This document shows, piece after piece, positions 6,982 to 28,816 of a DNA stretch of 64,000 nt (position 1 is its first letter; the number at the start of each line of letters is the position of its first letter). The notes beneath the pieces were generated by a model that had not been told where the DNA came from, did not search any database, and saw nothing but the letters and a program-made list of their open reading frames with translations. The DNA is from Planctomycetota bacterium (GTDB taxonomy: Bacteria > Planctomycetota > UBA1135 > UBA2386), in assembly GCA_016795295.1 (NCBI GenBank), contig JAEUHP010000007.1, positions 10,896-74,895 on the forward strand, in the 5' to 3' direction. Position numbers and translations under genes: made by a program.

Positions 6982-7026
6982 GACGGCCGCTTCTGCCTTC
7001 CGGCAGTGGCGGCCGTCGCTGTTTTC
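6982..7026 (+). terminator. Putative intrinsic terminator after secretin 1
   Basis: gacggccgc..ctgcc-ttcc-ggcag..gcggccgtc stem followed by gctgtttt. Confidence 0.45.
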
Positions 7027-7235
7027 CCCCTGTGCGGCCCAGGCGGCAGCACAGCGCGGAGTTGCTGATGGCTCTGGAACGAGTGAACCAAAGTGCCTAG
7101 CATGCGTTCCCCCCTGAGCTCAGGTTGCAAGCCCAGCAACCGGAGCCTCGCTACCGCGTGCCCAACCACCACCGCGACGACCGCGGCGGTGGCTCGGCTC
7201 GCCCCTTTGTCGCCGCGTACTTCGGAGCACATCCC

Positions 7236-10103: not shown

Positions 10104-10186
10104 GGCCCATGGACCGCGATCCGCGCCGCGCCGCCGCGATTTCCGTGCCGTTCCGCTTGCCACGCCACACCACCCCACACCGCCGT

Positions 10187-11344: not shown

Positions 11345-11557
11345 CCGAGCCGGGGTGCTCGCGGCCCCACAACTGCAGAACCACCCTGATTGCGCCGCAA
11401 CTTTCTGCACCCGGTACTTTCCAGCCATCCAGCTCTTCTGCAAACTGCCGAACCCTACCCCCGCGCGCTCGCCGTGGCCCTCTGCGACGAGTGCGCACCC
11501 ATCTCCCCCTCTCCTCTCTTCACCCCAGACCCGAGTCGTCCCAGGAGTCCTAGCTCC

Positions 11558-12277: not shown

Positions 12278-12370
12278 GCTCGCGGGCCGGCACCGGCGCA
12301 GGCCGCTGGCCATCAGCCCGCGGCAGGCGCCAACCCTTCCCCTCCCACCCCCACACCCCGGAGCCAGACC

Positions 12371-12916
12371 ATGAATAACACCAAGCTGGTCCAGCAGAAC
12401 GTCGACATGGACATGACGCCCATGATCGACTGTGTGTTCCTGCTGATGATCTTCTTCGTGCTGGTCATCGACTTGAGCCAGAAGAGCCTCGAAGACCTGA
12501 TCCTGCCGCGCGCAGTGTTCATCGAACCCGACGACAAGCCGCCGGACAGCCGCCCGATCATCAACGTGCTGCAGAACGGCAGTGTCGTCTACAACAAGGA
12601 GGTCTTCTACGACCCCTCGAAGCACGGCACCAACTACGCCCCGATCAAGGAGCTGCTGCTCACGATCCGCAAGAAGGGGCTGCTCGACAAAACGCTGCAC
12701 CTGAAGGCCGAGACCGTCGGCGGCGGTGCCACCGTCAACCTGATCGACGACCCGATCCTGTTGCGCGCCGACAAGTGGACCGAGTGGAACTACATCGGCG
12801 AGGTCATGAAGCAGTGCAGCCAGCCTGATGTGGCGTTCTGGAAGGTCGAGTTGGCCATGTCCGAGCAGGACAAGGAAACCAAAGAGAAGAACCCCCGACT
12901 CAAAGGTGGCCAGTGA
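12371..12916 (+). CDS. exbD: ExbD/TolR family protein (copy 1)
   Basis: MDMTPMIDCVFLLMIFF with the conserved TM Asp; C-terminal ILLRADK motif. Confidence 0.9.
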   Translation: MNNTKLVQQNVDMDMTPMIDCVFLLMIFFVLVIDLSQKSLEDLILPRAVFIEPDDKPPDSRPIINVLQNGSVVYNKEVFYDPSKHGTNYAPIKELLLTIRKKGLLDKTLHLKAETVGGGATVNLIDDPILLRADKWTEWNYIGEVMKQCSQPDVAFWKVELAMSEQDKETKEKNPRLKGGQ

Positions 12917-13476
12917 GCGCAATCGAAGACGCCCAGGAAGAGGTCAAGCCGGACATGACGCCGATGATCGACGTCGTGTTCCTGATGATCATTTTCTTCA
13001 TCTGCATCGACTTCAAGGTGCTGGAGTCCAAGCTCCCTGCCTACCTGCCGAAGGACAAAGGTAGCCAGAACACCAAGGTGGAACCGCAGGAACAGTTGTC
13101 GATCAAGATCTACGTCGACAACAAGGGAACGCCGACCTATCCGGACGGCGCCAACGCGAATTCGATCAATCCGAACACGAACCGCCCCTACCGCTTCGTG
13201 CTCAAGGACCACCGCATCCGTTGGGAGGTCGGTCCCAAGCCGATCGCCGACCTGAAGGCGGTCAAGGACGAGCTGACGAAGATCGCGCTGGATCCGGCCA
13301 GCCAAGTCAAGGACGAGACCGCACCCGGTGGCAAGAAGCTGATGAGCTGCGTGATCGAAGCCTACCCGGGCACGTTCTACGACGACGTGGCCAAGACGGC
13401 GGACGCGGCCAACGACGCGGGCTTCAAGGAAATCAACTTCGGCGGCGGGTTGGGCCCGGCGCCCGGCAAGAAGTAG
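12913..13476 (+). CDS. exbD: ExbD/TolR family protein (copy 2)
   Basis: PDMTPMIDVVFLMIIFF; ends AGFKEINF; 4-nt GTGA overlap with copy 1. Confidence 0.9.
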   Translation: MSAIEDAQEEVKPDMTPMIDVVFLMIIFFICIDFKVLESKLPAYLPKDKGSQNTKVEPQEQLSIKIYVDNKGTPTYPDGANANSINPNTNRPYRFVLKDHRIRWEVGPKPIADLKAVKDELTKIALDPASQVKDETAPGGKKLMSCVIEAYPGTFYDDVAKTADAANDAGFKEINFGGGLGPAPGKK

Positions 13477-14051
13477 CCCCTGCGAAAAGGCGCGGGCTCG
13501 AAGGCCCTCGACAACTCCCGCCCGGGACCTCCACAGAGGCCCGGGCGGAGTCGTTTGCGCAGGGGCGTTTTGCGTCCCGAACCAGGTGGGCCCCTCGCTG
13601 CGCCCCAGAAGCTCCGCCTGGCGTGCCGACGGCTCGACAAGCCGCCGATGCAGAGCATCTGCCCCCCCGAGTCAGGGCAGACTCAGCGCGGAGACGTGGC
13701 GCCACCCGAACGGCGAGACACCCCGACGCCCGCGCAACCGTGCTCGGTCCGCGCAAACCGCCCAGCGCAGCACGAGAATCCGACTTCACCGCGAAAATGG
13801 GCTGGCGCGTCCGGGTGGGCAAGGCTAGCTTCCGGCCTCCCCTGGCCGCTCTCCGCAACCCGGAACGGCCTTCCGTCCGCTCTCGGTCTGTCGACAAGTC
13901 CCTCTCGACCGCTGCCCGCGTGCATGGCGCCCTCCGTGCCCTGCAGAGTCCACTGCAGAATCGCGTGCTGCGTTCGCTTGTCGGTTGGCTGAGAGACGGA
14001 GGCTGCTTTCGCCGCCTCCGCGTGATCCCTGAATGCACCGAGCGTGACCCG

Positions 14052-16652
14052 ATGGCTCTCGAAAACTCGCGCCTTCTCGCTGCCTCACTGACCGCTGCGA
14101 TCCTCGGCACTTCCTGCTCCACTCCGAGCGATTCCTCCAACGCCAACCCCCAGGCGGACCGCACTGGTGCCAACGCGGCCGACGCGCCGTCTGCCGAGAA
14201 CGGCACGGGACAGCGTCAGGATCCCCAATCCGGTGAGCAGCGGCTCGGCGAAGAACGCCGTCAGGCGCTGGTGGCCGCGTACCTGGAGCGCGCGGAATCG
14301 ATGCGCGCCAATGGCCAGTTGCTCGCCGCCAAGAGCGAGTTGCTGAAGGCGCAGAATCTGGCACCGGCCAACGAACAAGTGTTCCGCCTGCTGTCGGCCG
14401 TGCAGGCCGAGCTGGGCGAACCGACCGGTCGCGTGACCACCTTCGCCGACGAGCAGCTGCGCCTGCAGAAGATCGGCGAAGAGCGTGCGCGCGCCGACGT
14501 TGCGACGCGCCTACAGCGGGCCGACGGACTGGTCGCCGAGAAGAACTACACCGGCGCCATCGAAGAGCTGCGGCTGGCAGCTCTGACGGTCGAACTGAAG
14601 GACCAGGTCGACTGGATGGGCAAGCGCGAAGAGGTCGCCGCCAAGAAGGCTGCCGCGGAGCAGCTGCTGGCCGACCAGCAACGCGCGGAGCAAGCCGCAG
14701 AGAACAAGCGCCTCGCCGAGCGCCTGCGGGAAGAGTACCAGGCCGCTGAGCGGCACCGCCGCGTGCAAGTGGACACCCTGCTGCTCGAGTCCCAGCACGC
14801 GTTCGTCAACCGTCGCTTCGCCTACGCGCAGGAGTGCGCCCGCCGGGCGCTCGAGATCGATCCGAACAGCACCGTGGCGGCGGAGATGATCAGCGCCTCG
14901 GTCAAGGCTTCGCGCGAGAGCTCCACCGACGCCTACTACCTCGAGCGCGCCAAGGCCATCCGCAACATGCTGGAGGCGGACGAGGACCTGAAGGTCCCGC
15001 AGACCGAAGTCCTCGAGCTGAACATGACGACCTGGAAGAAGGCCTTGGATCGCGCTGGCAAGAACCGGCGCACCGAGGAAGTCTCTCCGGCCGACCAGCA
15101 CCTGCTCGACAAGATCAAGACGGTGTCGGTGAGCAAGCTGACCTACACGGAGGAGAACGGCGCGTTCCTCGACGTGATCAACAACCTCAAGCTCAGCACC
15201 GGCGAGCAGATCCTCGTCACCCCGGAAGCCCGCAAGATCATCGAGGAAGAGAGCCTGAAGGTGCAGATCGAAGTCCGGGGGCAGATGACCCTCCACGACT
15301 TCTTGAACTTCCTGTGCCAAACCTCGACCAAGCTCGCCTGGACGGTTCGCAACGGTGTGATCCTGATCGGCGACAAGTCGCAGGCGTCCGGGACCTTGAG
15401 CACGGAGATCTATCCGGTCAAGGACTTGGTGATGAAGCACAAGCAGTTCTTGGCGCCGCGTATCCGTGACATCCCGGGCGAGTCGAACAACAACACGGAA
15501 GACTCCCCGCGCTTTGGCAGCGAAGCGGAAGACCCGATCGTGTTCGTCGAACTCGACGCCCTGAAGAAGCACGTCGAAGACGCCACGGACCCGAAGTACT
15601 GGGCCGATGCCGAAGCCAACGGCGGCTGCGTCATCACCACCGAAGAGAGCGGCTTCCTGGTCGTCAAGGCCAGCCCCGAGCTGCAGAAGCAGGTGCAGCA
15701 GATCCTCGCTGACATGCGCCGGTTCGCCACGCCGGTGGTCACCATCGACTCCAAGTTCTTGACCATCTCGCGCAACTACCTGCAGGAAGTCGGCATCGAC
15801 TTCCGCGGTTTGGGCGGTGCTGGCAACAAGGGCGATGCCGTGTCGCTGGACGACGTGACCAACGGCCTGCAGAACAACGCCTCGCGCGGCCTCGACAACA
15901 GCGGCACCGGGGACCCGGCTGCCAATCCCATGGCTGGCGCGTTCTTCAACGACGGCGGCGACGGTGACGTGCGCGCCCGCACCGAGAACTTCTTCACTTC
16001 CGACCTGAGCCGCGTGCTCTCGCCAACCGGCGGCTTCACGGGCGCCTGGACCCTGATCGGCGACACGCAGCTGAACATGATCCTGCGCGCGGTCGAGAAG
16101 CAGCAGGACGTGGAAGTGGTGAACAGCCAGATCCTCTCGGTCACCAACAACCAGCGCGGCCACGTGGCGGTCATCAACCAGACCACCTACATCCGCGACT
16201 TCGACGTGGAAGTGGCCCAGGCCGCCTTCATCGCCGACCCGAAGATCGACATCATTCAGGATGGCATCGTGCTGGAGGTCGAGCCGACCATCCAACACGA
16301 CCGCAAGTACATCATCCTGAACCTGAATCCGACGGTTTCGGAACTGACCCGGCCGATCCCGACGTTCACGACGTCCCTGGCCGGTTCGACGCTGCCGGTG
16401 ACGCTGCAGCTGCCGCGCCTCTTGGTGACGAACTTCACCACCACGGTGACGGTGCCGGACGGCGGATCGGTGCTGCTCGGTGGCCTGCGCCAAACGCTCA
16501 ACAAGGAGCGGCGCGCGGAGGTTCCGGTGCTGTCTCGCCTGCCGATCCTGTCGTTCTTCTTCAAGCAGGAAGGTTCGGCAGACGAGAACCGCAACCTGAT
16601 GGTCCTGGTGCGCGCCCAGATCACCGACGTGATCGAGAAGCTGGGCAAGTGA
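14052..16652 (+). CDS. Lipoprotein secretin (GspD/PulD-like) with TPR/coiled-coil N-terminus (secretin 2)
   Basis: Lipobox-like ILGTSC. VTIDSKFLTI, GIVLEVEPTI, TTVTVPDGGSVLLGG, VPVLSRLPILSFFF, NLMVLVRAQI. Clearly paralogous to 4266..6899. Confidence 0.85.
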   Translation: MALENSRLLAASLTAAILGTSCSTPSDSSNANPQADRTGANAADAPSAENGTGQRQDPQSGEQRLGEERRQALVAAYLERAESMRANGQLLAAKSELLKAQNLAPANEQVFRLLSAVQAELGEPTGRVTTFADEQLRLQKIGEERARADVATRLQRADGLVAEKNYTGAIEELRLAALTVELKDQVDWMGKREEVAAKKAAAEQLLADQQRAEQAAENKRLAERLREEYQAAERHRRVQVDTLLLESQHAFVNRRFAYAQECARRALEIDPNSTVAAEMISASVKASRESSTDAYYLERAKAIRNMLEADEDLKVPQTEVLELNMTTWKKALDRAGKNRRTEEVSPADQHLLDKIKTVSVSKLTYTEENGAFLDVINNLKLSTGEQILVTPEARKIIEEESLKVQIEVRGQMTLHDFLNFLCQTSTKLAWTVRNGVILIGDKSQASGTLSTEIYPVKDLVMKHKQFLAPRIRDIPGESNNNTEDSPRFGSEAEDPIVFVELDALKKHVEDATDPKYWADAEANGGCVITTEESGFLVVKASPELQKQVQQILADMRRFATPVVTIDSKFLTISRNYLQEVGIDFRGLGGAGNKGDAVSLDDVTNGLQNNASRGLDNSGTGDPAANPMAGAFFNDGGDGDVRARTENFFTSDLSRVLSPTGGFTGAWTLIGDTQLNMILRAVEKQQDVEVVNSQILSVTNNQRGHVAVINQTTYIRDFDVEVAQAAFIADPKIDIIQDGIVLEVEPTIQHDRKYIILNLNPTVSELTRPIPTFTTSLAGSTLPVTLQLPRLLVTNFTTTVTVPDGGSVLLGGLRQTLNKERRAEVPVLSRLPILSFFFKQEGSADENRNLMVLVRAQITDVIEKLGK

Positions 16653-17728: not shown

Positions 17729-19078
17729 TCAGCGGCGTTCGCCCACGGGCAGCCGTGCGAACGCGCCCTCCCGCTGCAAGCGCAGCACCACGGCCCGGTG
17801 GCGATCGGGGATCGCACCGCGCACAGGCCCAGCAGCGGCACGGCGAACGGCCGCAGCCGCGTAGACACCTTCGAGTTCCGCCACGTGTTGGTCGAGGTCC
17901 GGCGGCAGCGCCGGCAGCCGGGCCCGCAGCGTGCCCCACAGCCCCGGCTCGTCGACGAAGCGCCGCAGCGCCGCGGCGAGCGACTCTGCCGATCCGGGAT
18001 CGACCACCAGCCCGCCGCCAGCGGCCCTGGCGCCGAGCGCGCCGCGCGCGGACACGACACAGGGCAGGCCCAGCTCGAAGCACTCGTCGAGCACGATGCC
18101 GAAGGTCTCGAGGCAAGTGCTCGGGAACACCCCAACCGCCGGCTGCAGCCGGTGCAGCGCCTCGGTTTCGAACCGGCCGTGGAACACCACCGGCAGGCCC
18201 GCGGCGGCCGCGCGCAACTGGGCTTCGAAGGCCGTGGTGGCGAAACCACCGAGCACATGCAACTCGACCAACCGCCGCAGCGGTTGCTGGCACAGCCGGC
18301 GGAAGGCTTCGACCAACACCCGCACCCCCTTGTGCTCCGCCACGCCGCCCCAGAACGCGAACCGCAGCACCCCGTCCACCGCCGGCTCCGGCACCGGACC
18401 GCGCCCCGCAAAGCGCCGGCGGTAGCCCAACGGCAGCACCTGGAACGCCGCGCGCGGCACCCCCAGAGTGCTGGCAATCAGCTCCGCCGTGGCCGCAACC
18501 CCGACCAACAATGCGTCGGCCATCGTCAGTTCGGCCCGATTCTGCGCCGCGAACAGCTCGATGCCGGCGTCGAGCTCGGCGGCCGTTTCGTGGCCGTAGC
18601 GCGGCACACAGTCGCGGCAGGACGCGGGACCGAGGGGCCGCAGGCACACTTCGCCGTCTGGCCGCAGGCGGAAGGCCCGCGGGCAGGACGCATAGTAGTC
18701 GTGCAATGTGACCACGGCTGGGATGCCCTGGCGCTGCACGATCTCGACCAAGTTCGTGGTCAACCGCAACCACTGGTGCACGTGCACCACCTTGGGACGA
18801 TGCCGCAGCAGGAACGCCTCGAGCTGGGCCTCGACGCCGGGGTGCCACGCCTTGCTGTAGAGATCGAAGAACAGGTCGTCGCGGTGCAGGCGGTACACCG
18901 GCACCGGCCCGAGCGACAAGGTCTCGAGGCCGACTTCGGGCCACGGCTGGTGGCTGCCCGTCAGCACCGCGACGTCATGGCCCAGCGCGTGTTGCGCGCC
19001 GATCAGATCCTGCACGTAACTCTCGACCCCACCGCGCGTCTCGGGAGCCATCTGGTGGCACAGATGCAGCACGTCCAT
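17729..19078 (-). CDS. Glycosyltransferase family 4 (GT-B)
   Basis: GGVESYV..L...Q..LGHDVAV, VVTLHDYY..CPR, FPSTCLETFGIVLDE...GLPCVVS..GAL. Confidence 0.9.
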   Translation of the reverse strand: MDVLHLCHQMAPETRGGVESYVQDLIGAQHALGHDVAVLTGSHQPWPEVGLETLSLGPVPVYRLHRDDLFFDLYSKAWHPGVEAQLEAFLLRHRPKVVHVHQWLRLTTNLVEIVQRQGIPAVVTLHDYYASCPRAFRLRPDGEVCLRPLGPASCRDCVPRYGHETAAELDAGIELFAAQNRAELTMADALLVGVAATAELIASTLGVPRAAFQVLPLGYRRRFAGRGPVPEPAVDGVLRFAFWGGVAEHKGVRVLVEAFRRLCQQPLRRLVELHVLGGFATTAFEAQLRAAAAGLPVVFHGRFETEALHRLQPAVGVFPSTCLETFGIVLDECFELGLPCVVSARGALGARAAGGGLVVDPGSAESLAAALRRFVDEPGLWGTLRARLPALPPDLDQHVAELEGVYAAAAVRRAAAGPVRGAIPDRHRAVVLRLQREGAFARLPVGERR

Positions 19079-19081
19079 GGC

Positions 19082-19870
19082 CTAGCTCCGGTAGCGCTGC
19101 GCGCGCTGCTGGTCGAGTTCACCCCGGACCGCCAGGTACTGTTCGACGTGGACCACGTAGGCCTCCATCTCCGCCGTGAGCCGCAAAGCCAGGTCCTGCG
19201 CGTGCGCCCGCAACACTTCTTGCCACGACCGTGCGTCGCGCACCCACGAATGAGGATGGATCAAGGTGTGCAGGCGGGGGTGGTGGAACTTGGTGCACAC
19301 GCAGCCTTCGCGCCAGTGGAAGCCGCTGTCGCCGAAGTACGGAATGTCGCGCACCAGCGCTGGCTGGTAGGCACACGGGTGGTCGGGACTGATGTCGGCG
19401 AGCACCGGGCCGGCCGCCGGCTGGTGCTGCGCGATCGTATGGGTTCGGAAGCCCACCAACGCCTCGAACGTGCGCAAGTCCGCACGCGTGCCCGCCACCG
19501 GGTCCGTGCCGCGCTCGAGGAAGAAGCCGGGTTCGTAGTGCAGGCCCACTTCGTGCCCCAGCGCCGCCACCTGGCGCACCGAATCGAGCACCGCGCCGTC
19601 CATCAGGTTGTAGAACGGCGCATGCAGGCGGTAGTAGTAGGTCGTGTGCACGCCGAGTTCGTGCTCGAGCTGCGCCATGCGCAGCGCACTCCACGGCGTG
19701 ATGTCGACATCGTGCCGGATCAGCAGGAAGTCGCGCTCCGGCAGCCCTCGCGCCACGTCCCGCACCAGCGGCAGCCAGTAGCGCTGCTTCGCCACTTCGA
19801 GCAGATGCCGGTAGTGCGGCAAGCTGTAGGCACAGCGCGGCTCCGGTGGCAAGTCGGCTCCGTCGTTCAC
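19082..19870 (-). CDS. Polysaccharide deacetylase-like (NodB-fold, WbmS-like) protein
   Basis: LLIRHDVD, LEHELGVHTTYY, GHEVGLHYE, IAQHQP, LIHPHSW. GTG start overlaps the upstream stop. Confidence 0.7.
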   Translation of the reverse strand: MNDGADLPPEPRCAYSLPHYRHLLEVAKQRYWLPLVRDVARGLPERDFLLIRHDVDITPWSALRMAQLEHELGVHTTYYYRLHAPFYNLMDGAVLDSVRQVAALGHEVGLHYEPGFFLERGTDPVAGTRADLRTFEALVGFRTHTIAQHQPAAGPVLADISPDHPCAYQPALVRDIPYFGDSGFHWREGCVCTKFHHPRLHTLIHPHSWVRDARSWQEVLRAHAQDLALRLTAEMEAYVVHVEQYLAVRGELDQQRAQRYRS

Positions 19871-21495
19871 AGCCACCCCCCGCGGTAGGCCCAGCTGCGC
19901 GGGTGCAGCCGGCAGCCGCGTTTGCGCAGGAACTCGCGGAATGCCGCCGCCAGCGGCCCGAGCGGCCCGCGCACGCGCGGCGGCGCAAGCCCGATCGCCG
20001 TGACCGTGTCGGGCACGGCCAGGAACTCCGCATCGGGGAACTGCACGGCCACCAGCACCGTCTCGGTGGCCCGCGGCCCGTCGGGCACCGGGGCCACCGC
20101 GGCACAACGCAGCACGTGCCGGCCGGTGGCAGCGTCCACCTGCACACCCGTGGCACCGCAGTGGCTCGCCATCGTGACGCGGTGGCCGCGCAGTTCGAGC
20201 TGCCGGGCGAACTCGACCACCAGACCACTCGCGCGTTCCGCCACCTGTTCGGGGCTGAGCTGCGGCGCCGCCGCCTTGAGGTCCACCGCGGGCACGCCGC
20301 CGAACAGCCGCCCAGGCGGCACCGAGGTGACGACCGAGGAACCCGACAAGACCACCGCACCGGCCCCCACTTCGACCCCGGGGAACAACACGGCGCCGAT
20401 GCCGATCTGCGCCCCGTCGCCGAGGCGCACGGCGGCGAACCGGCTGGGGTACCCCAGCAGCGTGTTCGGGCCGAACGAGTGGGTCATGACACACGCGCTC
20501 CGCGACACCACCACCTCGTCGCCGATCTGCAGCGTGCGGCACGGGTTCAGGTGCACGTGCTCACCGACGAAACCGTGGCTGCCGACCCGCAATTCGGCCT
20601 CCGGATCCATCGCGCCGCCGCCGCCGACCTCCACGTCGTCGGCGAAGAACGCATTGTCGCCGCAGTCGATGCGCCGGCTGCGCACCCGGCAACGGGCACC
20701 GAAGTGCAGCAGTTCGCCGGCGTGCAGGGACGCAGCTTCGACCACGGTTCCGGCACCGAAGTAGGCACCGGCGCCGAGCACCAGCCGTTCGCACAGCAGC
20801 ACAGCACCCACCCCCAGCGTCGTGTCGCCGCCCACCAGCGCGCCGTGCCGGCGGTACAGCTGCAGCTTGAGTTCACTGCCGAGCTGCGCAAACCCCGGAT
20901 CTCGGCGGATCGCCGCCAGGAACTCCGGGGCCACGGTACCGTCGGCCAAGGGCGTCGCGGGCGCCGCGGGCGCCACCACCTGCGCTGCCTCGACGTCCAC
21001 CACCCGCACCATGCCCCCGGGCCCCGTGCCGCGCACCGAACCGAGGTCGATCTGCAATTCGATGGCCCGCCGGCGCGCTGCGGGAGCCACCGGTGCCGGA
21101 ACGGTGGGTGGCACCGCCTGGGCAGGGCCCACCTGCCCGTCGAGGGTCAGGCTCGCCACCGTTCGCGACGCCACCGCCGGCGGCGCCGGAGCAGGGCCCG
21201 CAGCCTGGGCAGATCCCCCACCGAGAGCCGCCACCACCGCATCGTCGCACGCTTCGCCAGCCGCGCCGAGCACACCGATCGCCGCCTGCAGGGGCACGCG
21301 CGTGCCGTTGGCGCACAACTGCCGCAGCAGCACCCCATCGGCCGCGGCCTCCACGTCGAACGCGGCTTTCAGGGTCTCGACCGTGGCGATGGTCTGCCCC
21401 GCGCGCACGCGTTCGCCGACCGCGACCCGCCATTCCACGAACAACACGTCCTCTTCGGCCGTGCCCAGATACGGCAACTGCTGCAGGATCGCCAT
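19867..21495 (-). CDS. Chimeric lipoyl-domain / peripheral-subunit-binding / left-handed beta-helix acyltransferase protein
   Basis: Lipoyl motif VETLKAAFDVEAAADG. PSBD motif PAARRRAIELQIDLGSVRGTGPGGMVRVVDV. Then hexapeptide repeats with MTHS and VRLGDGAQIGIGAVLFPGVEVGAGAVV...FGGVPA. No E2 HxxxDG motif. Confidence 0.82.
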   Translation of the reverse strand: MAILQQLPYLGTAEEDVLFVEWRVAVGERVRAGQTIATVETLKAAFDVEAAADGVLLRQLCANGTRVPLQAAIGVLGAAGEACDDAVVAALGGGSAQAAGPAPAPPAVASRTVASLTLDGQVGPAQAVPPTVPAPVAPAARRRAIELQIDLGSVRGTGPGGMVRVVDVEAAQVVAPAAPATPLADGTVAPEFLAAIRRDPGFAQLGSELKLQLYRRHGALVGGDTTLGVGAVLLCERLVLGAGAYFGAGTVVEAASLHAGELLHFGARCRVRSRRIDCGDNAFFADDVEVGGGGAMDPEAELRVGSHGFVGEHVHLNPCRTLQIGDEVVVSRSACVMTHSFGPNTLLGYPSRFAAVRLGDGAQIGIGAVLFPGVEVGAGAVVLSGSSVVTSVPPGRLFGGVPAVDLKAAAPQLSPEQVAERASGLVVEFARQLELRGHRVTMASHCGATGVQVDAATGRHVLRCAAVAPVPDGPRATETVLVAVQFPDAEFLAVPDTVTAIGLAPPRVRGPLGPLAAAFREFLRKRGCRLHPRSWAYRGGWL

Positions 21496-21496: not shown

Positions 21497-23497
21497 TCAG
21501 TACTCCCGGACCAACGCCCGCGCCATGGCCGCCACGGCCGCCGCGTCGGGCATCACCAGTTCCTCCAACTGCGGCGACGACGGCATCGGCGTGTGCGCCG
21601 CAGCCACCTTGCAGAGGGGTGCGTGCAACCAGCCGAACACCACCGGCAGCAGCGCGCCGATCCACGCATCGCCAACGCCGCCCACGGCCGACCCTTCGTG
21701 CACGACCACGCCGCGGCCGGTGGTGCGCAGCACTTCGGCACAGGTTTCGACGTCCAAGGGGGCCAACGATCGCAGATCGACGATCCCGGCGTCGATGCCT
21801 TCGCCAGCCAGCATCGCCGCGGCAGCCTGGCACAGCGGCAAGCACTGCCCATAGGTGAACAGGGTCACGTCGCGCCCGTCTCGGTCGATGCGCGCGCGGC
21901 CGAACGGCACCAGGTGGTCGGCCGCGGGCATCACGCCACGCGCCGGATAGAGCAACTTCGGCTCCAGGAACAGCACTGGGGCCGCGGTGCGCAGCGCGGT
22001 GCGCAACAGCCCCACCGCGTCGGCCAGATTGGCCGGGCAGACCACCTGCAGCCCCGGCACGTGCAGGAACCAGGCCTCGAGACTCTGGCTGTGCGTGGCG
22101 CCGTAGCCGTGCCGGCGGCCGATCGGCATGCGCACCGTCAGCGGCACCTGCACCTGGCCCGCGTACATGTAGCGCAGCTTCGCCGCGTGGTTGACCAGCG
22201 CGTCCATGCAGCAGGTGACGAAGTCGCCGAACATCAGCTCGACCACCGGATGCAGGCCGCCCATCGCCGCGCCGACCGCGAGTCCGGTGAAGCCGTTCTC
22301 GCTGATCGGCGTCTCGCGCACGCGTGCCGGCCCGAACTGCTGCAGGAGGCCGCGCGTCACCCCGAACGCGCCGCCGTAGGCACCGAGGTCTTCGCCGAGC
22401 AGCAGCACGCGTGGGTCGCGTTCGAGTTCGCCGCGCAAGGTCTCGCGCAGCGCTTCGGTCACGGTGGTGCTGCTACCGGCAGCGATCCGGCACGGCGCGG
22501 GCCCCGGTTCGGCCGCTGGCAGGTCGAGGTCCGCGAGCGCCACGGCGCGATCCCCGGGCGGCGCCGCCAAGGCAAACCGCACCGCCGCGGCGATCTCGGC
22601 CTCCACTTCTTGCGCCACTGCAGCCACCGCCGCGGGTGCCAGCTCCGCCGCAGCCTGCCACAGCAGCAACGGATCGCGCTGCCGCCAGGCCGCATCGTCC
22701 GCTGCATCCCGGTAGACGCACGGATCGCTCTTGCTGTGGCCGAAGTGCCGCCAAGTCGTGCATTCGAGCAGCGCCGGCCCTTCGCCCGCACGCGCCCGCG
22801 CCAGCAGCGGCGCCGCCGCCGCCAGCACCGCGCCGAGCTGGTTGCCGTCGCAGCGCGCCGTCGCCATGCCCCGGTAGCGGCTCGCCCATTCGGTGTAGTC
22901 GGCGCACGCAGAATGCGCCGCCACCGGCGTCGACATGGCGAAGCCGTTGTTCTCCAACACGAACACCACCGGCAGTCGCCACAGCGCCGCCAGGTTGAGA
23001 CTCTCGTGGAACGCCCCCGTGGCGGCAGCGCCGTCGCCCAGATACGCCACCACCACGCGGCCGGTGCCGCGCAACTGTTGCGCGAGCGCGAGCCCCGCCG
23101 CGATCGGCAGGCCCCCGCCCGTGATGCCATTGCTGCCGAAGTGCCCGATCTCGGGCACCGCGGTGTGCTGGCTGCCGCCCTTGCCGCGGCAGTAACCGGC
23201 AGCGCGCCCGGCGAACTCCGCCAGCGTGCGATCCGCTGCCGCCCCTTTGGCCAGCAGGTGGCCGTGGCCGCGGTGGGTGCTGGTCACCAGATCGTCTGGT
23301 TCGAGCAGCGCCGAAACCCCCACCGGCACCGCCTCCTGACCCGCGCACAGATGTGTGGTGCCGCCGATCGCCCCGCTGCCGACCAGCCGGTGCAGTTCCT
23401 GCTCGAAGCGGCGGATGCGCAGCATGCTGCGGTAGAGCTGCAACGGTTGCAGCTGCGGCGTCTGGCTGGCGGCCGCGTTGGCGGGACACGGGTGCAT
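21497..23497 (-). CDS. Fused 2-oxoacid dehydrogenase E1 alpha+beta (TPP-dependent)
   Basis: STHRGHGH, GDGAAATGAFHESLN...VLENN (TPP motif), GHSKSDP, ETPISENGFTG, GATHSQSLE, VDLRSLAPLD. Confidence 0.92.
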   Translation of the reverse strand: MHPCPANAAASQTPQLQPLQLYRSMLRIRRFEQELHRLVGSGAIGGTTHLCAGQEAVPVGVSALLEPDDLVTSTHRGHGHLLAKGAAADRTLAEFAGRAAGYCRGKGGSQHTAVPEIGHFGSNGITGGGLPIAAGLALAQQLRGTGRVVVAYLGDGAAATGAFHESLNLAALWRLPVVFVLENNGFAMSTPVAAHSACADYTEWASRYRGMATARCDGNQLGAVLAAAAPLLARARAGEGPALLECTTWRHFGHSKSDPCVYRDAADDAAWRQRDPLLLWQAAAELAPAAVAAVAQEVEAEIAAAVRFALAAPPGDRAVALADLDLPAAEPGPAPCRIAAGSSTTVTEALRETLRGELERDPRVLLLGEDLGAYGGAFGVTRGLLQQFGPARVRETPISENGFTGLAVGAAMGGLHPVVELMFGDFVTCCMDALVNHAAKLRYMYAGQVQVPLTVRMPIGRRHGYGATHSQSLEAWFLHVPGLQVVCPANLADAVGLLRTALRTAAPVLFLEPKLLYPARGVMPAADHLVPFGRARIDRDGRDVTLFTYGQCLPLCQAAAAMLAGEGIDAGIVDLRSLAPLDVETCAEVLRTTGRGVVVHEGSAVGGVGDAWIGALLPVVFGWLHAPLCKVAAAHTPMPSSPQLEELVMPDAAAVAAMARALVREY

Positions 23498-23632
23498 CGG
23501 CGTTGGGCGGGACAGAGCCCACCGGGGATCGCCCAAGGCTACGCCGGGTCTGAAGCCGTCACGGGACGCACAAGTGCGTAACGGCCCCGGGCCGAAGTCG
23601 CAGGCGAACACGCCGCAACCACGGCTCCACCG

Positions 23633-26600
23633 TCATCCCTGCGTTGCCATCGGCTGCACCGGCGCACCCGTGTAACGGCGCCCCGCCAACAGCACTTCCT
23701 GCTTCATGACCACGCTGTGCGGCGTGACTTCCGCACCAGCCCCGATCGACGCCCCGTACAACACCACCGAAGCGTGCCCGAGCGTCGCGCCAGCACCGAC
23801 CCGCACCGGCGCGATCTTCAGCACGCGGTCCTCGAACGTGTGCGCCTGGAACATCGTGTCCACCGTGGCGCCATCGCCGAACTCCAGCATGTCCGGGTCC
23901 ACCACGTGCGCGAAGCCGGGCCCGAGCACCACTCCACGCCCCAATCGCATGCCCATGGCGCGCAGACACCAAGCGAGCCACGGCGTGCCGCCGAACGGTG
24001 CCAGCACCGGCCGCGCCAAGAAGCCCCACAGCACGTACAAGAAGTCCCAGCGGCTGCACCAGCACGACCACAGCCCGTGCTGGCCGGAGCGCACGCGTCC
24101 GAGCAGCAGCCACTTCGCCGCACACACGAAGAGCACCGCCGCAGCCCCGGTCGCCACCGAGGCCAACACGGCACGGAAGAGCCAGCCCACACTCGCCTCA
24201 GGCGCCCCGGCGACCTGCCACCAGCACCCCAGCAGGGCCGCAGCGGCGAACGGCAGCGCGCAGCGCAGCAGTTCCCACACCGCTCGGTTGGTGCGCTGCA
24301 ACCAGCCCGGCGCCACGGTCAGGCGCGCGTCGACGGCGACCACTTCGCGCTGCGGCAACGGGAACGGTGGCAAACCGAACCACGCCGAACCCGCCGGCAT
24401 GCGCGTCCCGTCGGCCACCGTGCACACCCCGAGCAGCAGATCGTCTGGCAACACCGTGCCGGCCGGCACCACCACGTGGTTGCCGAGGAAAGTCCGCTCG
24501 CCGAGCTGCACCGGGCCGATGCGCAGCGCTCCGGCGCGCAGCACCGGCTCGCCGAGGTAGATGCCGTCGGCCAGGAAGCAGGTGCCGCCGAGGGTCAGGT
24601 GCTCCGGGAGCGTGCCGGTGATGGTGCTGATCTCGGCGGCACGGCCGATGCGCGCGCCGGCGAGGCGCAGGAACCACGGCCAGAACAGCGTGCCGGACAG
24701 CCAGACGCCCGCGGCTTCGAGTTCGTGGCTGCGGTGTTCGAACAGCACATGGGCCACGCTGCGCACCGCGTGCCAGCCCGTGGCCACCCGCGGCGACCAG
24801 CGCAACCAACAGGCCGCGCCGAGCACGCGCAGCGGCACCCAGCCGAGCAACGCCAAGGCCAAGGCCCCCACTGGCAACGGGCCAGCGAACTCGCCGAGCA
24901 CCGCGCCGAACAGGGCCACTTGGCCCGTCGTCGCCGCCAGCAGCGCCACCAAGGCCAACACGGCGAGGCCCGCGCCGGCGGCACTGGCAGCCCGCAGCGC
25001 CAACACCAGCAGCGTGTGGGCGAGCGCCGGCAACGCGGCCGCAACCCCACCCGCCAACGCTGGCGGCGCGTCGGCGTCGGCAAGGCAGCGCGCCGCCGGC
25101 ACGCCGTCCCACACCTCGCCCGCCGGCACCGCCACACCCCGCGGCGGAATCGCATGCGGTCGCAGCCGCGCCCCGGCCCCGAGCGAACTGCCGCCCTGCA
25201 GACCACTGCGCACCTCCAGCACGGCCCGCGGGCCGAGTTGCACCGGCGCATGCACCAGCAGGCCATCGCGCAACTCGACGAGCCCGAGCGCCGCATCGCG
25301 GCCGACCACGGCCCCGTCGCCCACTTCGAGCAGCGCCCAGGCGCCGCGGCGCAGTTCCACGCCGCGCGCGAAGTGCACGCCTCGGCCGATCCGCGCACCG
25401 AGCCAGCGCAGTGCAGCGTTCTGCAGCGCAGTGCCCTGCAGCAGGTCCCACGGCACCCAGCGCGCCAGCCGTTCGACGCACCAGTGGCGCAGGTAGGGCA
25501 GGCTGTGCACGGGCACCGCACCCGGTTGCACCCGGCCCACCAGCAGCCAGGCGCCGAAACGCACCGCGGCCAGCGCCGGAAGCGTCCAGGCAAGGCGTAC
25601 GAGCCAGGCGGCGACCGGCACCACCACCCAGGCCGACCAGCCAAACGGCGACAGGGCTGCCACGCACGGTTGCCACGGCCACACGGCCAGCAGCCACAAG
25701 GCGCCGGCCAGTTCGGCGGCGAGCCACGCAGCCTGCAGGCAGGCGACGAGGCGCGGGCGCGGGCGGGCCGCCACCGTGGCCGGTTCGCGTTGCCGAGGCT
25801 CGGCCTGGCCAGAGCCAGCCGCGGCGAACCGGGCCAGCGCACGCGCGGTGCGCTGTTCGTAGACCGCACGCACAGTGATCGCCGCGGTGGCGGGCTGGGC
25901 GCGCAGGCGGGACACCAGCGCGGCGGCGCGCAGCGAGTTGCCGCCGAGCGCGAAAAAATCGTCGTCCGGCCCCGCCTTGGTGCCGAGCTCGGTGCCGACG
26001 GCGGCAGTGATCACCGCCAGCAAGTCCCCTGCGGCGTCGTTGGTGCCCCAAGACGCAGCGCCCGCGCGCGCCGCGGCGGTGGCAGGTTCGACCATGGTTC
26101 CGGCAGCAGGTCCGGCAGCGGCCGCCAGCGCGGGCAAGCCAGCGAGCACCGCCCGCCGGTCGAGTTTGCCACCCACCGTGGTCGGCAATGCGTCGACCAC
26201 CCACCAGCGCTCCGGCACGCAGTGTGGCGGCAGCAGGCTGCGCAGGGCCAAAGCGAGTGCCGGTGTCGCCAGCGCGGCTTCGGGGTGTGCCGGCACCACA
26301 CACGCCACCAGTTGGTCGCCTTGCAGCACACACGCCGCCTGCCGTACCCCGGGCAACAGGGTGATCTGCGCTTCGATCTCGGCGAGCTCGACGCGGTGGC
26401 CGCGCACCTTGACCTGGGCATCCAGGCGGCCGTGGTAATAGAGCGCGCCATCCGGAGCGCGGTGCACGGCATCGCCCGTGCGGTAGATGCGGCCGAACTG
26501 CGGATGCGCGACGAACTTGACCGCGGTCGCTTCCGGCGCCCCGAGGTAACCACGTGCCAGCACGGCACCGCCGATGCACAGTTCGCCGCGTTCGCCATCG

Positions 26601-27667
26601 GCCACCGGCTCCAGCGCCTCGTCCAGCACGTGCGCCACGGCCCCCGGCACCGGATGGCCGATCGCCACCGGCACACCAGGGCGCACTTCGGCGCGCAGCA
26701 CGGTGACCGTGCACTCGGTCGGGCCATAGCCGTTGACGCAGCGGCGGCCCCGGGCAAAGGCATCGGCGAGGTCCTGGGGCAGCGCCTCGCCACCGGCATA
26801 GACCAGCCGCAGGGCCGGCAGTTCGCGCCACGGCTCGCGGCACGCCATCGCGCGCAACTGGGTCGGTGGCGGACACAGCACGGTGATGCGTTCGCGCCGC
26901 AGCCATGCCGGCAGGTCGGGGCCGAGCCTGGCCGTGTCGTGGTCGAGCGGCACCACGGTGGCGCCCGCGGCGAGTGCCAGCCACACTTCTTCGACCGATG
27001 AATCGTACGCTGGGGACGAACCCTGGGCGACGCGGTCGCCGGGGCCGAGGCCGAACTCGAGCAGGTCGTGCGCAACCAGGTTGGCGATGGTGCGGTGCTC
27101 GATCGCCACGGCCTTGGGCCGGCCGGTGGTGCCCGAGGTGAACACCAGATACGCGAGGTGTTCGGGCAGGATGGCGTTTGCACCGCGCGCGTTCGGCAGC
27201 GGCAAGGCGGCCGGGGCTGGCACCGCGACCGCCGCCGCGAGCAGCGCACCCACGTCGTAGGCCGGCAGGTCCGGCCGCAGTACGCGGAGGCGCCGGCAGC
27301 CGGCGGCATCGGTCAGCACCGCCCGCGCCGCGGCTTCGTCGAGCAAGGTCGCAAGGTGCGCATCGGGGTGGCTCGGCTCGAGGCCGGTGTAGGCCGCGCC
27401 GGCCGAGAGCACGCCGAGCTGCGCGGCATAGAGCTCGGGCCCACCCCGCGACAGGCACAGCGCCACCACCGCGTCGGCTCCCGCATGGGGCGCCACCCGC
27501 TCGGCGACCGCAGCGGCCATGGCCGCCAGGGCGCGGTAACTCAGGATCGTGCGGGGCTGCGCACCGCTCGGCGGCACGTCGAGCGCGCACTCGTTCGGCC
27601 AGCGCTGCACCGCGCGCCAGAAGAACTCATGCAGCAACGAAGGGTGGCGCGGCTCGGGCGAGGGCAT
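23633..27667 (-). CDS. Pls/PosA-family single-module membrane NRPS (A-PCP-TM/hexapeptide terminal domains)
   Basis: A-domain cores YLVFTSGTTGRPK, NGYGPTE, YRTGD, QVKVRGHRVEL, GKLDR. PCP motif FFALGGNSL. Three TM-flanked LGARIG/GMRLG beta-helix segments. No canonical C or TE domain. Confidence 0.88.
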   Translation of the reverse strand: MPSPEPRHPSLLHEFFWRAVQRWPNECALDVPPSGAQPRTILSYRALAAMAAAVAERVAPHAGADAVVALCLSRGGPELYAAQLGVLSAGAAYTGLEPSHPDAHLATLLDEAAARAVLTDAAGCRRLRVLRPDLPAYDVGALLAAAVAVPAPAALPLPNARGANAILPEHLAYLVFTSGTTGRPKAVAIEHRTIANLVAHDLLEFGLGPGDRVAQGSSPAYDSSVEEVWLALAAGATVVPLDHDTARLGPDLPAWLRRERITVLCPPPTQLRAMACREPWRELPALRLVYAGGEALPQDLADAFARGRRCVNGYGPTECTVTVLRAEVRPGVPVAIGHPVPGAVAHVLDEALEPVADGERGELCIGGAVLARGYLGAPEATAVKFVAHPQFGRIYRTGDAVHRAPDGALYYHGRLDAQVKVRGHRVELAEIEAQITLLPGVRQAACVLQGDQLVACVVPAHPEAALATPALALALRSLLPPHCVPERWWVVDALPTTVGGKLDRRAVLAGLPALAAAAGPAAGTMVEPATAAARAGAASWGTNDAAGDLLAVITAAVGTELGTKAGPDDDFFALGGNSLRAAALVSRLRAQPATAAITVRAVYEQRTARALARFAAAGSGQAEPRQREPATVAARPRPRLVACLQAAWLAAELAGALWLLAVWPWQPCVAALSPFGWSAWVVVPVAAWLVRLAWTLPALAAVRFGAWLLVGRVQPGAVPVHSLPYLRHWCVERLARWVPWDLLQGTALQNAALRWLGARIGRGVHFARGVELRRGAWALLEVGDGAVVGRDAALGLVELRDGLLVHAPVQLGPRAVLEVRSGLQGGSSLGAGARLRPHAIPPRGVAVPAGEVWDGVPAARCLADADAPPALAGGVAAALPALAHTLLVLALRAASAAGAGLAVLALVALLAATTGQVALFGAVLGEFAGPLPVGALALALLGWVPLRVLGAACWLRWSPRVATGWHAVRSVAHVLFEHRSHELEAAGVWLSGTLFWPWFLRLAGARIGRAAEISTITGTLPEHLTLGGTCFLADGIYLGEPVLRAGALRIGPVQLGERTFLGNHVVVPAGTVLPDDLLLGVCTVADGTRMPAGSAWFGLPPFPLPQREVVAVDARLTVAPGWLQRTNRAVWELLRCALPFAAAALLGCWWQVAGAPEASVGWLFRAVLASVATGAAAVLFVCAAKWLLLGRVRSGQHGLWSCWCSRWDFLYVLWGFLARPVLAPFGGTPWLAWCLRAMGMRLGRGVVLGPGFAHVVDPDMLEFGDGATVDTMFQAHTFEDRVLKIAPVRVGAGATLGHASVVLYGASIGAGAEVTPHSVVMKQEVLLAGRRYTGAPVQPMATQG

Positions 27668-28627: not shown

Positions 28628-28816
28628 TGTCGTTTCCGTTGGGTAGGGATCGGCGCCGGAATCGGCGCCACCCCCACCACTGCGCAGCACCCTCGCGACT
28701 ATTTTGCGAGTGCCCCCGGAACGCTCGCAGTTCGCCGCGCCGAGCCCCTTGCAAGACCCCCGCCAAAACCCCTGCCAGACGCCTGCTAGGCCCTGCCAGG
28801 ACCGTGCCCGGGGCCG

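Follow-up and report, generated by a model that had tools for sequence, protein, structure and literature searches.

The known lipoyl-arm systems are few: the three 2-oxoacid dehydrogenase complexes, acetoin dehydrogenase, glycine cleavage and sulfur oxidation. Within the dehydrogenase complexes the arm is, to our knowledge, always paired with the same chloramphenicol-acetyltransferase-like E2 core. Outside these classical complexes, or combined with an atypical transferase half, the E1/lipoyl logic is also met in the AcoC-type E2 and in the quinocarcin and naphthyridinomycin systems, where a glycolyl group is transferred in a lipoyl-dependent way; as far as we know, none of these has a left-handed beta-helix (LbH) domain or acts on sugars. 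The LbH acyltransferases of the maltose/galactoside O-acetyltransferase class, of which NodL is a member, are homotrimers with active sites between the subunits and acetyl-CoA as donor. In LpxA, LpxD and the Pls/PosA enzymes the acyl group is borne by a phosphopantetheine arm on ACP or PCP, loaded by adenylation or fatty-acid synthesis. Finally, triads of a glycosyltransferase, a de-N-acetylase and an acyltransferase are known (NodC/NodB/NodA with NodL, LpxA/LpxC/LpxD, MshA/MshB in mycothiol, teicoplanin), and their acyl donor is acyl-CoA or acyl-ACP.

The window analysed here is the whole stretch of 64,000 nucleotides, and all the features described below lie on its (-) strand. The gene under study, called lipoyl-LbH, occupies 19867..21495, with an ATG start and a stop codon at 19867..19869, and encodes 542 amino acids. 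An earlier sequence-only reading had described its product as an E2-like protein in which an LbH acyltransferase replaces the catalytic core. The front end is indeed that of the E2 of the pyruvate, 2-oxoglutarate and branched-chain complexes, with which it shares a lipoyl domain and its lysine, an Ala/Pro linker, a peripheral-subunit-binding domain (PSBD) and an E1 gene directly upstream. The lipoyl domain (residues 1-77, 21265..21495) was matched by Pfam Biotin_lipoyl over residues 7-68 (E 2.9e-10, 40.3 bits for a cut-off of 22.1), and its fold matches in Foldseek were E2 and BCCP domains (rmsd 1.3 over 78 columns for 3crk_C). The lipoyl motif recognised in that reading stands in the translation as VETLKAAF, with Lys43 of ETLKA (codon 21367..21369) as the predicted lipoyl-lysine. 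It is followed by an Ala/Pro-rich flexible linker (residues 78-136, 21088..21264), of variable length and gap-rich in the alignment of homologues, and by the PSBD (E3_binding, residues 137-170, 20986..21087), to which PF02817 aligned over residues 137-169 (E 2.5e-9, 37.6 bits for a cut-off of 23.7). Both had been named beforehand from the sequence, and the AlphaFold2 model (mean pLDDT 80.6) bears them out: it consists of a lipoyl beta-barrel (1-77), a disordered linker (97-130, pLDDT below 50), PSBD helices (138-170), short-strand beta-helix coils from about 232 to 390 and a confident alpha/beta domain (415-524). Residues 171-230 (20806..20985), of low to middling pLDDT, were assigned to a second linker and an N-terminal beta-helix cap with conserved residues F192, F202, L205, Y214, R215 and G218.

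Unlike a classical E2, the protein lacks the PF00198 catalytic and core-forming domain, and its C-terminal 355 residues consist of an LbH domain and a domain without family match. No PF00198 (2-oxoacid_dh) match was obtained at E<=0.01, while the same Pfam search detected two ordinary E2 cores on other contigs of the source genome. Since that genome already holds these two cores, lipoyl-LbH is an additional protein. The canonical E2 models of NCBIfam cover only residues 6-189 approximately, with scores far under their cut-offs, and the acetoin E2 model NF011457 matches only residues 7-172. The HxxxDG motif, also found missing at first reading, is absent from the translation when read by eye.

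The LbH acyltransferase domain (residues 231-405, 20281..20805) was matched by the WcaF-family LbH acetyltransferase model of NCBIfam over residues 302-408 (E 1.4e-14). Pfam Hexapep on residues 356-387 reached 18.1 bits, under its cut-off of 27, which most homologues pass. Sequence matches in the PDB were maltose, galactoside and streptogramin acetyltransferases, and by these matches the domain is of the maltose/galactoside O-acetyltransferase class. In fold searches NeuO came first; residues 200-405 gave VIA-align Z scores of 13-15 to NeuO, LpxD, GlmU and LpxA, but with large rmsd values (11-13). The hexapeptide repeats with a TH motif seen in the sequence-only reading correspond to VMTHSFG, in which His339 (loop motif MTHSF, codon 20479..20481) aligns with the histidine of the SHS motif of 3ect. 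We take the latter to be the catalytic histidine of maltose and galactoside O-acetyltransferases, and His339 would be its counterpart. From membership of the LbH family we infer that this part of the protein forms a trimer, which may act as the scaffold proposed in the sequence-only reading. With Maa, LacA, WcaF, NeuO and Vat it shares the hexapeptide beta-helix, the loop histidine and the last coils after it. The Maa/LacA-class enzymes are stand-alone proteins of about 180-220 residues that take acetyl from CoA, whereas lipoyl-LbH has in addition a lipoyl arm of its own, a PSBD and a C-terminal domain of 135 residues. LpxA and LpxD (with acyl-ACP) and the Pls/PosA terminal domain (with a PCP arm) provide a precedent for an LbH domain taking acyl from a protein-bound thioester arm, the likeness consisting of fold matches for the former two and of a weak NCBIfam match of the TIGR02353 terminal region to the LbH part (E 5.8e-10) for the latter. 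In contrast to these enzymes, the arm of lipoyl-LbH would be a dihydrolipoyl group loaded by a thiamine-diphosphate E1.

The further C-terminal domain noticed in the sequence is a confident alpha/beta domain in the model (residues 406-542, 19870..20280; pLDDT 86-96 over most of its length). It ends in a conserved tail, FREFLRKRG..L.PR.W.Y.GGWL, and also occurs in distant and stand-alone LbH homologues. No Pfam family recurred in it (7 families, each in 1 of 24 members, best E 0.0043), a profile search of the PDB sequences gave no match below E 0.84, and an ESM Atlas feature search for its fold returned scores of 0.79-0.80 only, which is chance level. The fold searches covered the whole model, and their matches were taken up by the lipoyl and LbH domains. 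By the Pfam and PDB sequence searches this conserved domain is without known relatives.

Full-length relatives formed 93 clusters of 41-97% identity, after which the E-value drops from 1e-103 to 1e-17; relatives were also recovered in 34 species-level genomes or loci and in 40 metagenome loci. Across 45 homologues Lys43 and Thr338 do not vary, and conservation of His339 is 90% or higher; within the PSBD, P138 is invariant, with A140, R141, G156, G158 and G161 likewise conserved to 90% or more. The lysine, threonine and histidine are all invariant in 34 distant homologues. The conservation of Lys43, Thr338 and His339 places the architecture far above chance. When residues 188-542 were used as query, 545 representatives were obtained at E<=1e-10, and 40 of 73 sampled among the 150 matches listed from these bore both Biotin_lipoyl and Hexapep. 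Lipoyl-LbH is an E2-type lipoyl arm and PSBD joined to an unrelated LbH acyltransferase without E2 core, and the fusion, found across these homologues, is genuine and old.

The gene directly upstream encodes a fused E1 alpha-beta protein, a thiamine-diphosphate 2-oxoacid decarboxylase (21497..23611, 704 amino acids as listed), with the Pfam domains E1_dh, Transket_pyr and Transketolase_C. It is closest to pyruvate dehydrogenase E1, and its nearest solved relatives are pyruvate dehydrogenase E1 alpha and beta. Its stop codon lies 1 nucleotide before the ATG of lipoyl-LbH (junction TGA-g-ATG). The true start is probably near Met38, because homologues align from about residue 37-57. In 24 of the 34 loci the E1 gene immediately precedes lipoyl-LbH, and in another 4 it lies 2-7 kb upstream; in the 5 genomes tested among those whose locus lacks E1, an orthologue of the fused E1 was systematically present elsewhere (5/5). 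In addition, lipoyl-LbH, the fused E1 (at least 62% identity) and the downstream deacetylase-like gene described below are common to the same 8 of 31 related genomes, which are not independent samples. A dedicated E1 is tightly coupled genetically to lipoyl-LbH.

On the downstream side, a gene for a CE4/NodB-like deacetylase-fold protein of about 262-264 residues (19082..19876) begins with a GTG (19876 or 19870) that overlaps the lipoyl-LbH stop, and this gene directly follows lipoyl-LbH in 32 of the 34 loci. Its model (pLDDT 87.3) has a predicted deformed beta/alpha-barrel fold, with a Foldseek probability of 1.00 to 2vyo (E 1.1e-4), 2iw0, BA3943, ArnD 8t0j, PgdA and IcaB; the E-values range from 1e-4 to 3e-3 and the TM values reach only 0.3-0.5. 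The invariant residues H55, D56, D58, H108, H113 and H207 would fit a putative metal site of Asp-His-His type together with catalytic Asp and His motifs. Pfam, PF01522 included, and the PDB sequences gave no match to this protein. A complex prediction of residues 200-542 of lipoyl-LbH with the CE4-like protein scored 0.00 in both runs, for which the controls were not folded, and counts neither for nor against binding. Next comes a GT4 glycosyltransferase of 449 residues (17729..19078; Pfam Glyco_trans_4_4 and Glyco_trans_1_4), which begins 3 nucleotides after the deacetylase stop (junction TAG-gcc-ATG), so that the GT4, CE4-like and lipoyl-LbH genes are spaced by gaps of 3 nucleotides at most. 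GT4 follows the deacetylase in 10 of the 34 loci and is part of the operon only here and in the closest relatives. By analogy, a GT4, a CE4-like protein and an acyltransferase in one operon would follow the same logic as the NodC/NodB/NodA-type triads.

The distant branch was recovered in 40 metagenome loci (L037-L076) with G+C contents of 0.27-0.73; in this branch E1 alpha, E1 beta and lipoyl-LbH are met inside nonulosonic-acid sugar clusters. In 14 of the loci E1 alpha and beta directly precede lipoyl-LbH, and in another 3 they lie a short way downstream; where E1 is missing, the contig mostly ends beside the lipoyl-LbH gene. The CE4-like gene was found in none of the 40. Among 11 lipoyl-bearing loci that were scanned, 8 contain a PIG-L de-N-acetylase, non-homologous to the CE4-like protein (the exceptions are L057, L058 and L068), 6 contain NeuB and 6 a CMP-transferase, together with 4,6-dehydratase, DegT aminotransferase, PglD-like transferase and 2-epimerase genes. 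The pairing of PIG-L with lipoyl-LbH recalls that of deacetylase and acyltransferase in the known triads. Two loci are particularly informative: L067 comprises E3 (dihydrolipoamide dehydrogenase), lipoyl-LbH, an LplA-like lipoate ligase, a CMP-transferase and PIG-L, and in L068 E1 alpha and E1 beta precede a protein in which a lipoyl domain is joined to an amino-sugar N-acetyltransferase of PglD type. The source genome itself contains E3-like and LplA/LipB-like genes, the E3-like ones not near lipoyl-LbH, and a weak match only to NeuB (37 bits); no other sugar-nucleotide genes were detected within the 64-kb window.

We propose, with a probability of about 60%, that the E1 charges the lipoyl arm with a small acyl group derived from a 2-oxoacid and that the LbH domain hands this group on to an amine or hydroxyl of a sugar. 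Lys43 would be lipoylated by the LplA/LipB-type enzymes of the cell. The fused E1, docked on the PSBD, would decarboxylate a small 2-oxoacid and reductively acylate the arm, which would then swing into the LbH site, at the place taken by the pantetheine arm of acetyl-CoA or acyl-ACP in other LbH enzymes. There, once His339 had activated the acceptor nucleophile, a sugar amine or hydroxyl and not CoA would receive the acyl group, which could be acetyl, glycolyl, propionyl or another. The CE4-like protein here, or PIG-L in the distant branch, would strip an N-acetyl group from the same sugar to allow re-acylation, GT4 would supply the glycoside in this window, and E3 would re-oxidise the arm. 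Several observations weigh against this proposal: the weak NeuB match and the lack of other sugar-nucleotide genes in the window, the three scanned distant loci without PIG-L, the absence of the CE4-like gene from the distant branch and the large rmsd of the LbH fold matches. The conserved partners of lipoyl-LbH suggest such a transfer of acyl groups from 2-oxoacids to sugars without coenzyme A: because they are a sugar deacetylase and sugar-pathway genes, the arm most likely feeds sugar acylation rather than acyl-CoA. They also amend the sequence-only reading, of which the replaced core and the genuine fusion stand. That reading did not mention the E1, deacetylase and glycosyltransferase neighbours, and the context is sugar modification instead of the central metabolism of classical E2 proteins. 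Placed in sugar pathways, the family retains E1, arm and docking domain, with a sugar-type beta-helix enzyme exchanged for the usual transferase. With respect to the known triads, the difference would be that a dedicated E1 and a lipoyl arm supply the acyl group.

In a more specific and more tentative form, for which we would not wager even odds, this would be a hitherto undescribed CoA-free glycan acylation in which the E1 forms acyl-lipoyl and the fused LbH domain acylates an amino sugar that has lost its N-acetyl group. The cassette of the distant branch would then be the missing set of enzymes that installs the non-acetyl N-acyl groups of legionaminic- or pseudaminic-type acids, for instance glycolyl from hydroxypyruvate or propionyl from 2-oxobutyrate, and in Planctomycetota it would yield an N-acylated glucosamine-type glycoconjugate. 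If the sugar-acylation reading is true, direct glycan acylation from 2-oxoacids would be a new output of lipoate chemistry, and carrier arms and transferase folds could recombine modularly. A 2017 study on Tannerella describes knowledge of the enzymes modifying nonulosonic acids as scarce, and leaves unresolved how their N-glyceroyl and perhaps N-glycolyl groups arise (PMC5378307); lipoyl-LbH would offer a testable candidate for N-acyl questions of the type raised there. Full-text literature searches, which covered largely journals without subscription, returned no paper that deals with a protein of the lipoyl-LbH type or with E1 genes inside clusters for nonulosonic acids.

The most serious alternative is that lipoyl-LbH is a true E2 in a different fold, the LbH domain transferring the acyl group of the dihydrolipoyl arm to CoA; E1, lipoyl-LbH and E3 would then make up a small 2-oxoacid (or acetoin-type) dehydrogenase complex, dedicated to supplying a particular acyl-CoA for other enzymes. 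The full lipoyl and PSBD front end, the adjacent E1 and the E3 adjoining lipoyl-LbH in L067 are what such an enzyme would have, and a non-canonical C-terminal half is also known from another E2, that of acetoin dehydrogenase (AcoC). The LbH proteins closest in sequence all bind acetyl-CoA, the donor used by their class, so that a CoA site could have been preserved and acyl-CoA could be what the enzyme makes; the separate PglD-like N-acetyltransferase of the nonulosonic-acid loci could take this product. Moreover, if the acyl group were plain acetyl, as the likeness of the E1 to pyruvate dehydrogenase allows, the point of pairing deacetylation with re-acylation would be unclear, which counts against sugar acylation. 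However, an acyl-CoA factory has no use for the strict pairing with the deacetylase, in the 32 loci as in the 8 related genomes, or for the PIG-L that takes the place of the deacetylase in the distant branch. No second acyltransferase is present in the planctomycete loci, the lipoyl domain of L068 is directly fused to an amino-sugar N-acetyltransferase type, and the genome is already provided with its two ordinary E2 cores. We consider a true E2 unlikely, though deserving of serious attention, and sugar acylation the better account of the conserved partners.

The neighbourhood of this particular window could also suggest that lipoyl-LbH is a tailoring enzyme of a Pls/PosA-type NRPS (1344 residues, 23633..27667), the arm-borne acyl capping or decorating an amino-acid polymer. 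The NRPS has clear A and PCP domains (AMP-binding and PP-binding) and a TIGR02353 region of 330 bits, under the cut-off of 423. It is on the same strand, 21 nucleotides upstream of the listed E1 start, and the TIGR02353 match to the LbH part mentioned above would agree with such a partnership. Against it, the E1 start probably lies about 110 nucleotides downstream of the listed one, enough space to fit a promoter; no NRPS match was found in the 34 related loci, with flanks of up to 10 kb; relatives endowed with both genes (G003, G004 and G016) carry them on different contigs; and NRPS orthologues occur in at least 6 relatives without lipoyl-LbH (G002, G007, G008, G011, G017 and G018). The Pls-type NRPS was rejected as a functional partner on this synteny and distribution, and a tailoring role is very improbable.

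In branched-sugar antibiotic pathways, E1-type carboligases add a two-carbon branch to a keto-sugar, and the E1 studied here could be such an enzyme, with a separate or regulatory role for lipoyl-LbH. Keto-sugar-making 4,6-dehydratases are indeed encoded in the distant loci, and the paulomycin sugar pathway is reported to contain pyruvate dehydrogenase-like E1 alpha/beta pairs (PMC4802897). Yet the E1 is almost always beside a PSBD-bearing lipoyl carrier, and L067 holds both E3 and a lipoate ligase, none of which carboligation needs, so that we give this explanation very little credit.

An assembly chimera or a decaying gene is practically out of the question, even though the source assembly is fragmented (309 contigs, 91% complete, 5.5% contamination), since the architecture is conserved across the independent assemblies of the clusters, genomes and metagenome contigs counted above, with functional residues maintained, and since the frame is open with a gene-like third-position G+C of 0.87.

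Finally, ORFs located beside stand-alone LbH forms (L063, L068) were compared with the CE4-like protein, and homology was rejected (hhalign probability below 1%). In L063 we observed a match to DUF2334 of 25.9 bits for a cut-off of 26, a lead at most.

The lipoyl-LbH gene (19867..21495, minus strand) has an ATG start and a product of 542 residues; its third-position G+C of 0.87 is typical of genes in this window of 70-75% G+C. A Pfam scan detected a Biotin_lipoyl domain at residues 7-68 (E 2.9e-10), a peripheral-subunit-binding domain (PSBD, E3_binding) at residues 137-169 (E 2.5e-9) and a sub-threshold hexapeptide repeat at residues 356-387, and no 2-oxoacid_dh domain (PF00198). The NCBIfam E2 models covered residues ~6-189 only, with scores far under their cut-offs, and models of the WcaF family and other beta-helix acetyltransferases matched residues 302-408 (E 1.4e-14 and weaker). 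The two motifs quoted by the sequence-only reading, ETLKA with Lys43 and MTHS with His339, were both found in the translation, in which no HxxxDG motif was seen. Its claim that the E2 core is absent was thus confirmed by the Pfam scan, by the translation and by the point at which the E2 models stop.

With 45 homologues as input, AlphaFold2 gave a model (mean pLDDT 80.6) comprising a lipoyl beta-barrel (residues 1-77), a disordered linker (97-130), a small helical PSBD (138-170), a left-handed beta-helix (LbH, about 232-390) and a confident alpha/beta domain (415-524). Together with Pfam and NCBIfam, the model bore out throughout the succession of lipoyl domain, PSBD, beta-helix and further C-terminal domain described from the sequence. 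Using Foldseek, the lipoyl domain resembled E2 lipoyl domains and biotin carriers. An all-against-all structural search matched residues 200-405 to NeuO, LpxD, GlmU, LpxA and other LbH acyltransferases with Z scores of 13-15 and large rmsd. The closest solved sequences to the C-terminal 355 residues were the hexapeptide acetyltransferase 3ect and maltose, galactoside, streptogramin and serine acetyltransferases, His339 being aligned with the loop-motif His of these enzymes. The protein differs from the E2 family, which its front half resembles, by lacking the defining PF00198 core, and shares with the maltose/galactoside O-acetyltransferase class both the predicted fold and the aligned His. 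Judged by its sequence, it combines the E1/lipoyl logic with a beta-helix transferase of sugar type.

Among 5.8 billion protein clusters searched, 93 shared the length and domain make-up of the lipoyl-LbH protein (41-97% identity, E down to 1e-103), after which scores dropped sharply to ordinary E2 proteins matching the N-terminal third only (E 1e-17 and weaker). All organism-named clusters among the 93 belonged to uncultured Planctomycetota, and databases gave the relatives no names other than 'E3 binding domain-containing protein', 'biotin/lipoyl-containing protein' or 'acetyltransferase-like isoleucine patch superfamily enzyme'. Within GTDB, taking one genome per species, we collected 34 lipoyl-LbH loci labelled as Planctomycetota, as a planctomycete subgroup or without phylum label. 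An assembly chimera was excluded by the recurrence of this architecture in the 93 clusters and 34 species-level loci. The gene is rare and patchy, since its C-terminal unit was found at E<=1e-25 in 9 of 401 genomes evenly sampled from the phylum and the gene itself in 8 of 31 close relatives. In an alignment of 45 planctomycete homologues, Lys43 and Thr338 were invariant, and His339, His307, His315, the PSBD glycines and the C-terminal tail were at least 90% conserved. The most divergent member of this clade, P0094, reads TTQF, with Gln for the MTHS His, and has no C-terminal tail; possibly this copy is inactive or repurposed.

The lipoyl-LbH gene is tightly packed between its neighbours. Upstream lies a fused E1 alpha-beta gene (21497..23611, minus strand; Pfam E1_dh, Transket_pyr and Transketolase_C), whose TGA stop is separated by 1 base from the lipoyl-LbH ATG. 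The closest solved relatives of this E1 were pyruvate dehydrogenase E1 subunits, and its scores fell under the NCBIfam pyruvate dehydrogenase cut-offs. Downstream, a CE4/NodB-like deacetylase-fold gene (19082..19876, minus strand) begins with a GTG that overlaps the lipoyl-LbH stop, and its own TAG lies 3 bases before the ATG of a GT4 glycosyltransferase gene. The CE4-like assignment is a fold match: the protein matched nothing in Pfam or among PDB sequences, and its model (pLDDT 87.3) resembled chitin deacetylases, ArnD, PgdA and IcaB in Foldseek (E 1e-4 to 3e-3, probability 1.00). Its invariant His and Asp residues are H55, D56, D58, H108, H113 and H207.

Among the 34 loci, the CE4-like gene was directly 3' of the lipoyl-LbH gene in 32, the remaining 2 contigs stopping inside the latter. 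E1 alpha-beta was directly upstream in 24 loci, 2-7 kb upstream in 4 and absent from 6, one of which had no upstream DNA; searching the genomes of the other 5 recovered a full-length fused E1 orthologue elsewhere in each (60-64% identity). A GT4 gene followed the deacetylase in 10/34 loci, and the flanks outside the E1/lipoyl-LbH/deacetylase core varied widely (IF-2, RbfA, sulfatase, transporters and others). Exactly the same 8 of the 31 relatives contained the lipoyl-LbH gene, the fused E1 (at least 62% identity) and the deacetylase-like gene, a pattern rather than a statistical test because related genomes are non-independent samples. The related genome G002, without lipoyl-LbH and CE4-like genes, contains a paralogue of the fused E1 (G002:C33:70198-72192; 37% identity) with one in-frame TGA.

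When residues 188-542 by themselves served as the query against 1.84 billion representatives, 6371 matches reached E<=0.001, of which 545 reached E<=1e-10 and 73 E<=1e-30. We scanned with Pfam 73 of the 150 matches listed: 40/73 combined Biotin_lipoyl and Hexapep, 6/73 also had a detectable E3_binding domain, and the other 33 mostly stood alone, at 325-430 aa, with LbH and C-terminal domain and no arm. The Lys and the Thr-His pair did not vary among 34 distant lipoyl-bearing members (24-44% identity to their reference), which also retained the tail motif and a consensus resembling the PSBD. Across 40 metagenome loci of this distant branch (G+C 0.27-0.73), E1 alpha and beta, as separate or fused genes, were directly upstream in 14 and E1 genes nearby downstream in 3, the rest being mostly short contigs ending beside the lipoyl-LbH gene. 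The planctomycete CE4-like gene was detected in none of the 40.

Scanning the ORFs of 11 lipoyl-bearing distant loci with Pfam identified a PIG-L (LmbE-type) de-N-acetylase in 8 (missing from L057, L058 and L068), NeuB in 6, a CMP-sugar synthetase (CTP_transf_3) in 6, an epimerase of the hydrolysing 2-epimerase type (Epimerase_2) in 5 and a DegT aminotransferase with a 4,6-dehydratase in 4; PglD-like acetyltransferases were likewise present. By domain content, these genes are a predicted nonulosonic-acid set of legionaminic or pseudaminic type. Two distant loci were especially telling. At L067:1-4419 (G+C 0.27), an E3 gene cut by the contig end, the lipoyl-LbH gene, a lipoate ligase of LplA/LipB type, a CMP-sugar synthetase and PIG-L lie on one strand. 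At L068:10096-13080, E1 alpha and E1 beta precede a 346-aa protein with Biotin_lipoyl, PglD_N and Hexapep domains, a predicted second kind of lipoyl-LbH fusion, of a lipoyl domain with a PglD-type amino-sugar N-acetyltransferase; this locus also holds NeuB and a CMP-transferase. The stand-alone form was found among glycosyltransferase, PglD and DegT genes at L063 and L074. Beside it, the ORF L063:6873-7955 gave a borderline DUF2334 match (25.9 bits for a cut-off of 26), with Bac_transf, PglD-like and DegT genes lying 3' and no detectable homology to the CE4-like protein of the window. An RtcB-family (RNA ligase family) gene adjoins the E1/lipoyl-LbH genes in two sugar-type loci (L056:12202-13581 and L068:8513-10045).

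E1 is genetically coupled to the lipoyl-LbH gene, and in two unrelated lineages the partner is a predicted sugar de-N-acetylase, of a different and unrelated kind in each; E3-like and LplA/LipB-like genes are present in the window's own genome. We favour direct sugar acylation by the lipoyl-LbH system, with a probability of roughly 0.6. E1, docked via the PSBD, would decarboxylate a small 2-oxoacid and acylate the lipoyl arm, which would occupy, in the LbH active site, the position otherwise taken by the pantetheine arm of acetyl-CoA or acyl-ACP. There His339 would activate a sugar amine or hydroxyl as acyl acceptor, at a position previously freed by the deacetylase, and E3 would re-oxidise the arm. 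The sequence-only reading, of an LbH acyltransferase replacing the E2 core and serving a swinging lipoyl arm, is upheld in part: the E2-like front half and the LbH acyltransferase stand, the support extending to the domains and to the conserved Lys and His. The main alternative, in which CoA remains a ligand of the LbH domain and the genes encode a small dedicated dehydrogenase complex making acyl-CoA, appears rather unlikely to us, and minor alternatives share the remainder. For direct sugar acylation, acetyl is a possible acyl group since the E1 is most like pyruvate dehydrogenase E1, and would weaken the idea of a swap by deacetylation and re-acylation; we speculate that hydroxypyruvate (glycolyl) or 2-oxobutyrate (propionyl) would be a better-fitting source. 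In the window, GT4 would make a glycoside for subsequent de-acetylation and re-acylation, a logic resembling the glycosyltransferase, deacetylase and acyltransferase triads of Nod-factor, lipid A, mycothiol and teicoplanin.

A full-text literature search, with subscription journals mostly outside its coverage, found neither a published description of a lipoyl-LbH fusion nor one of nonulosonic-acid clusters containing E1 genes. Passages of a 2017 article on Tannerella (PMC5378307) present nonulosonic-acid-modifying enzymes as scarcely known and the origin of the N-glyceroyl, and of a possible N-glycolyl, group as unresolved.

The adjoining Pls/PosA-type single-module NRPS (23633..27667, minus strand; 1344 aa) comprises an A domain, a PCP and a long TIGR02353-like region with hexapeptide repeats, scoring 330 bits, below the TIGR02353 cut-off of 423. 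We rejected it as part of the lipoyl-LbH module: it had no counterpart in the 34 loci, relatives possessing both genes carry them on separate contigs, and orthologues (full-length in 6 related genomes at 49-54% identity, long partial matches in 3 more) also occur in relatives without the lipoyl-LbH gene. Two further minus-strand ORFs, 27800..28690 (296 aa) and 31861..34539 (892 aa), are gene-like in third-position G+C (0.86-0.88) and had no match in Pfam. Upstream of the module, the plus-strand stretch 4089..16652 encodes two large proteins with secretin domains (4089..6899 and about 14100..16652), along with a TPR protein of 1000 aa and an ExbB/ExbD pair.
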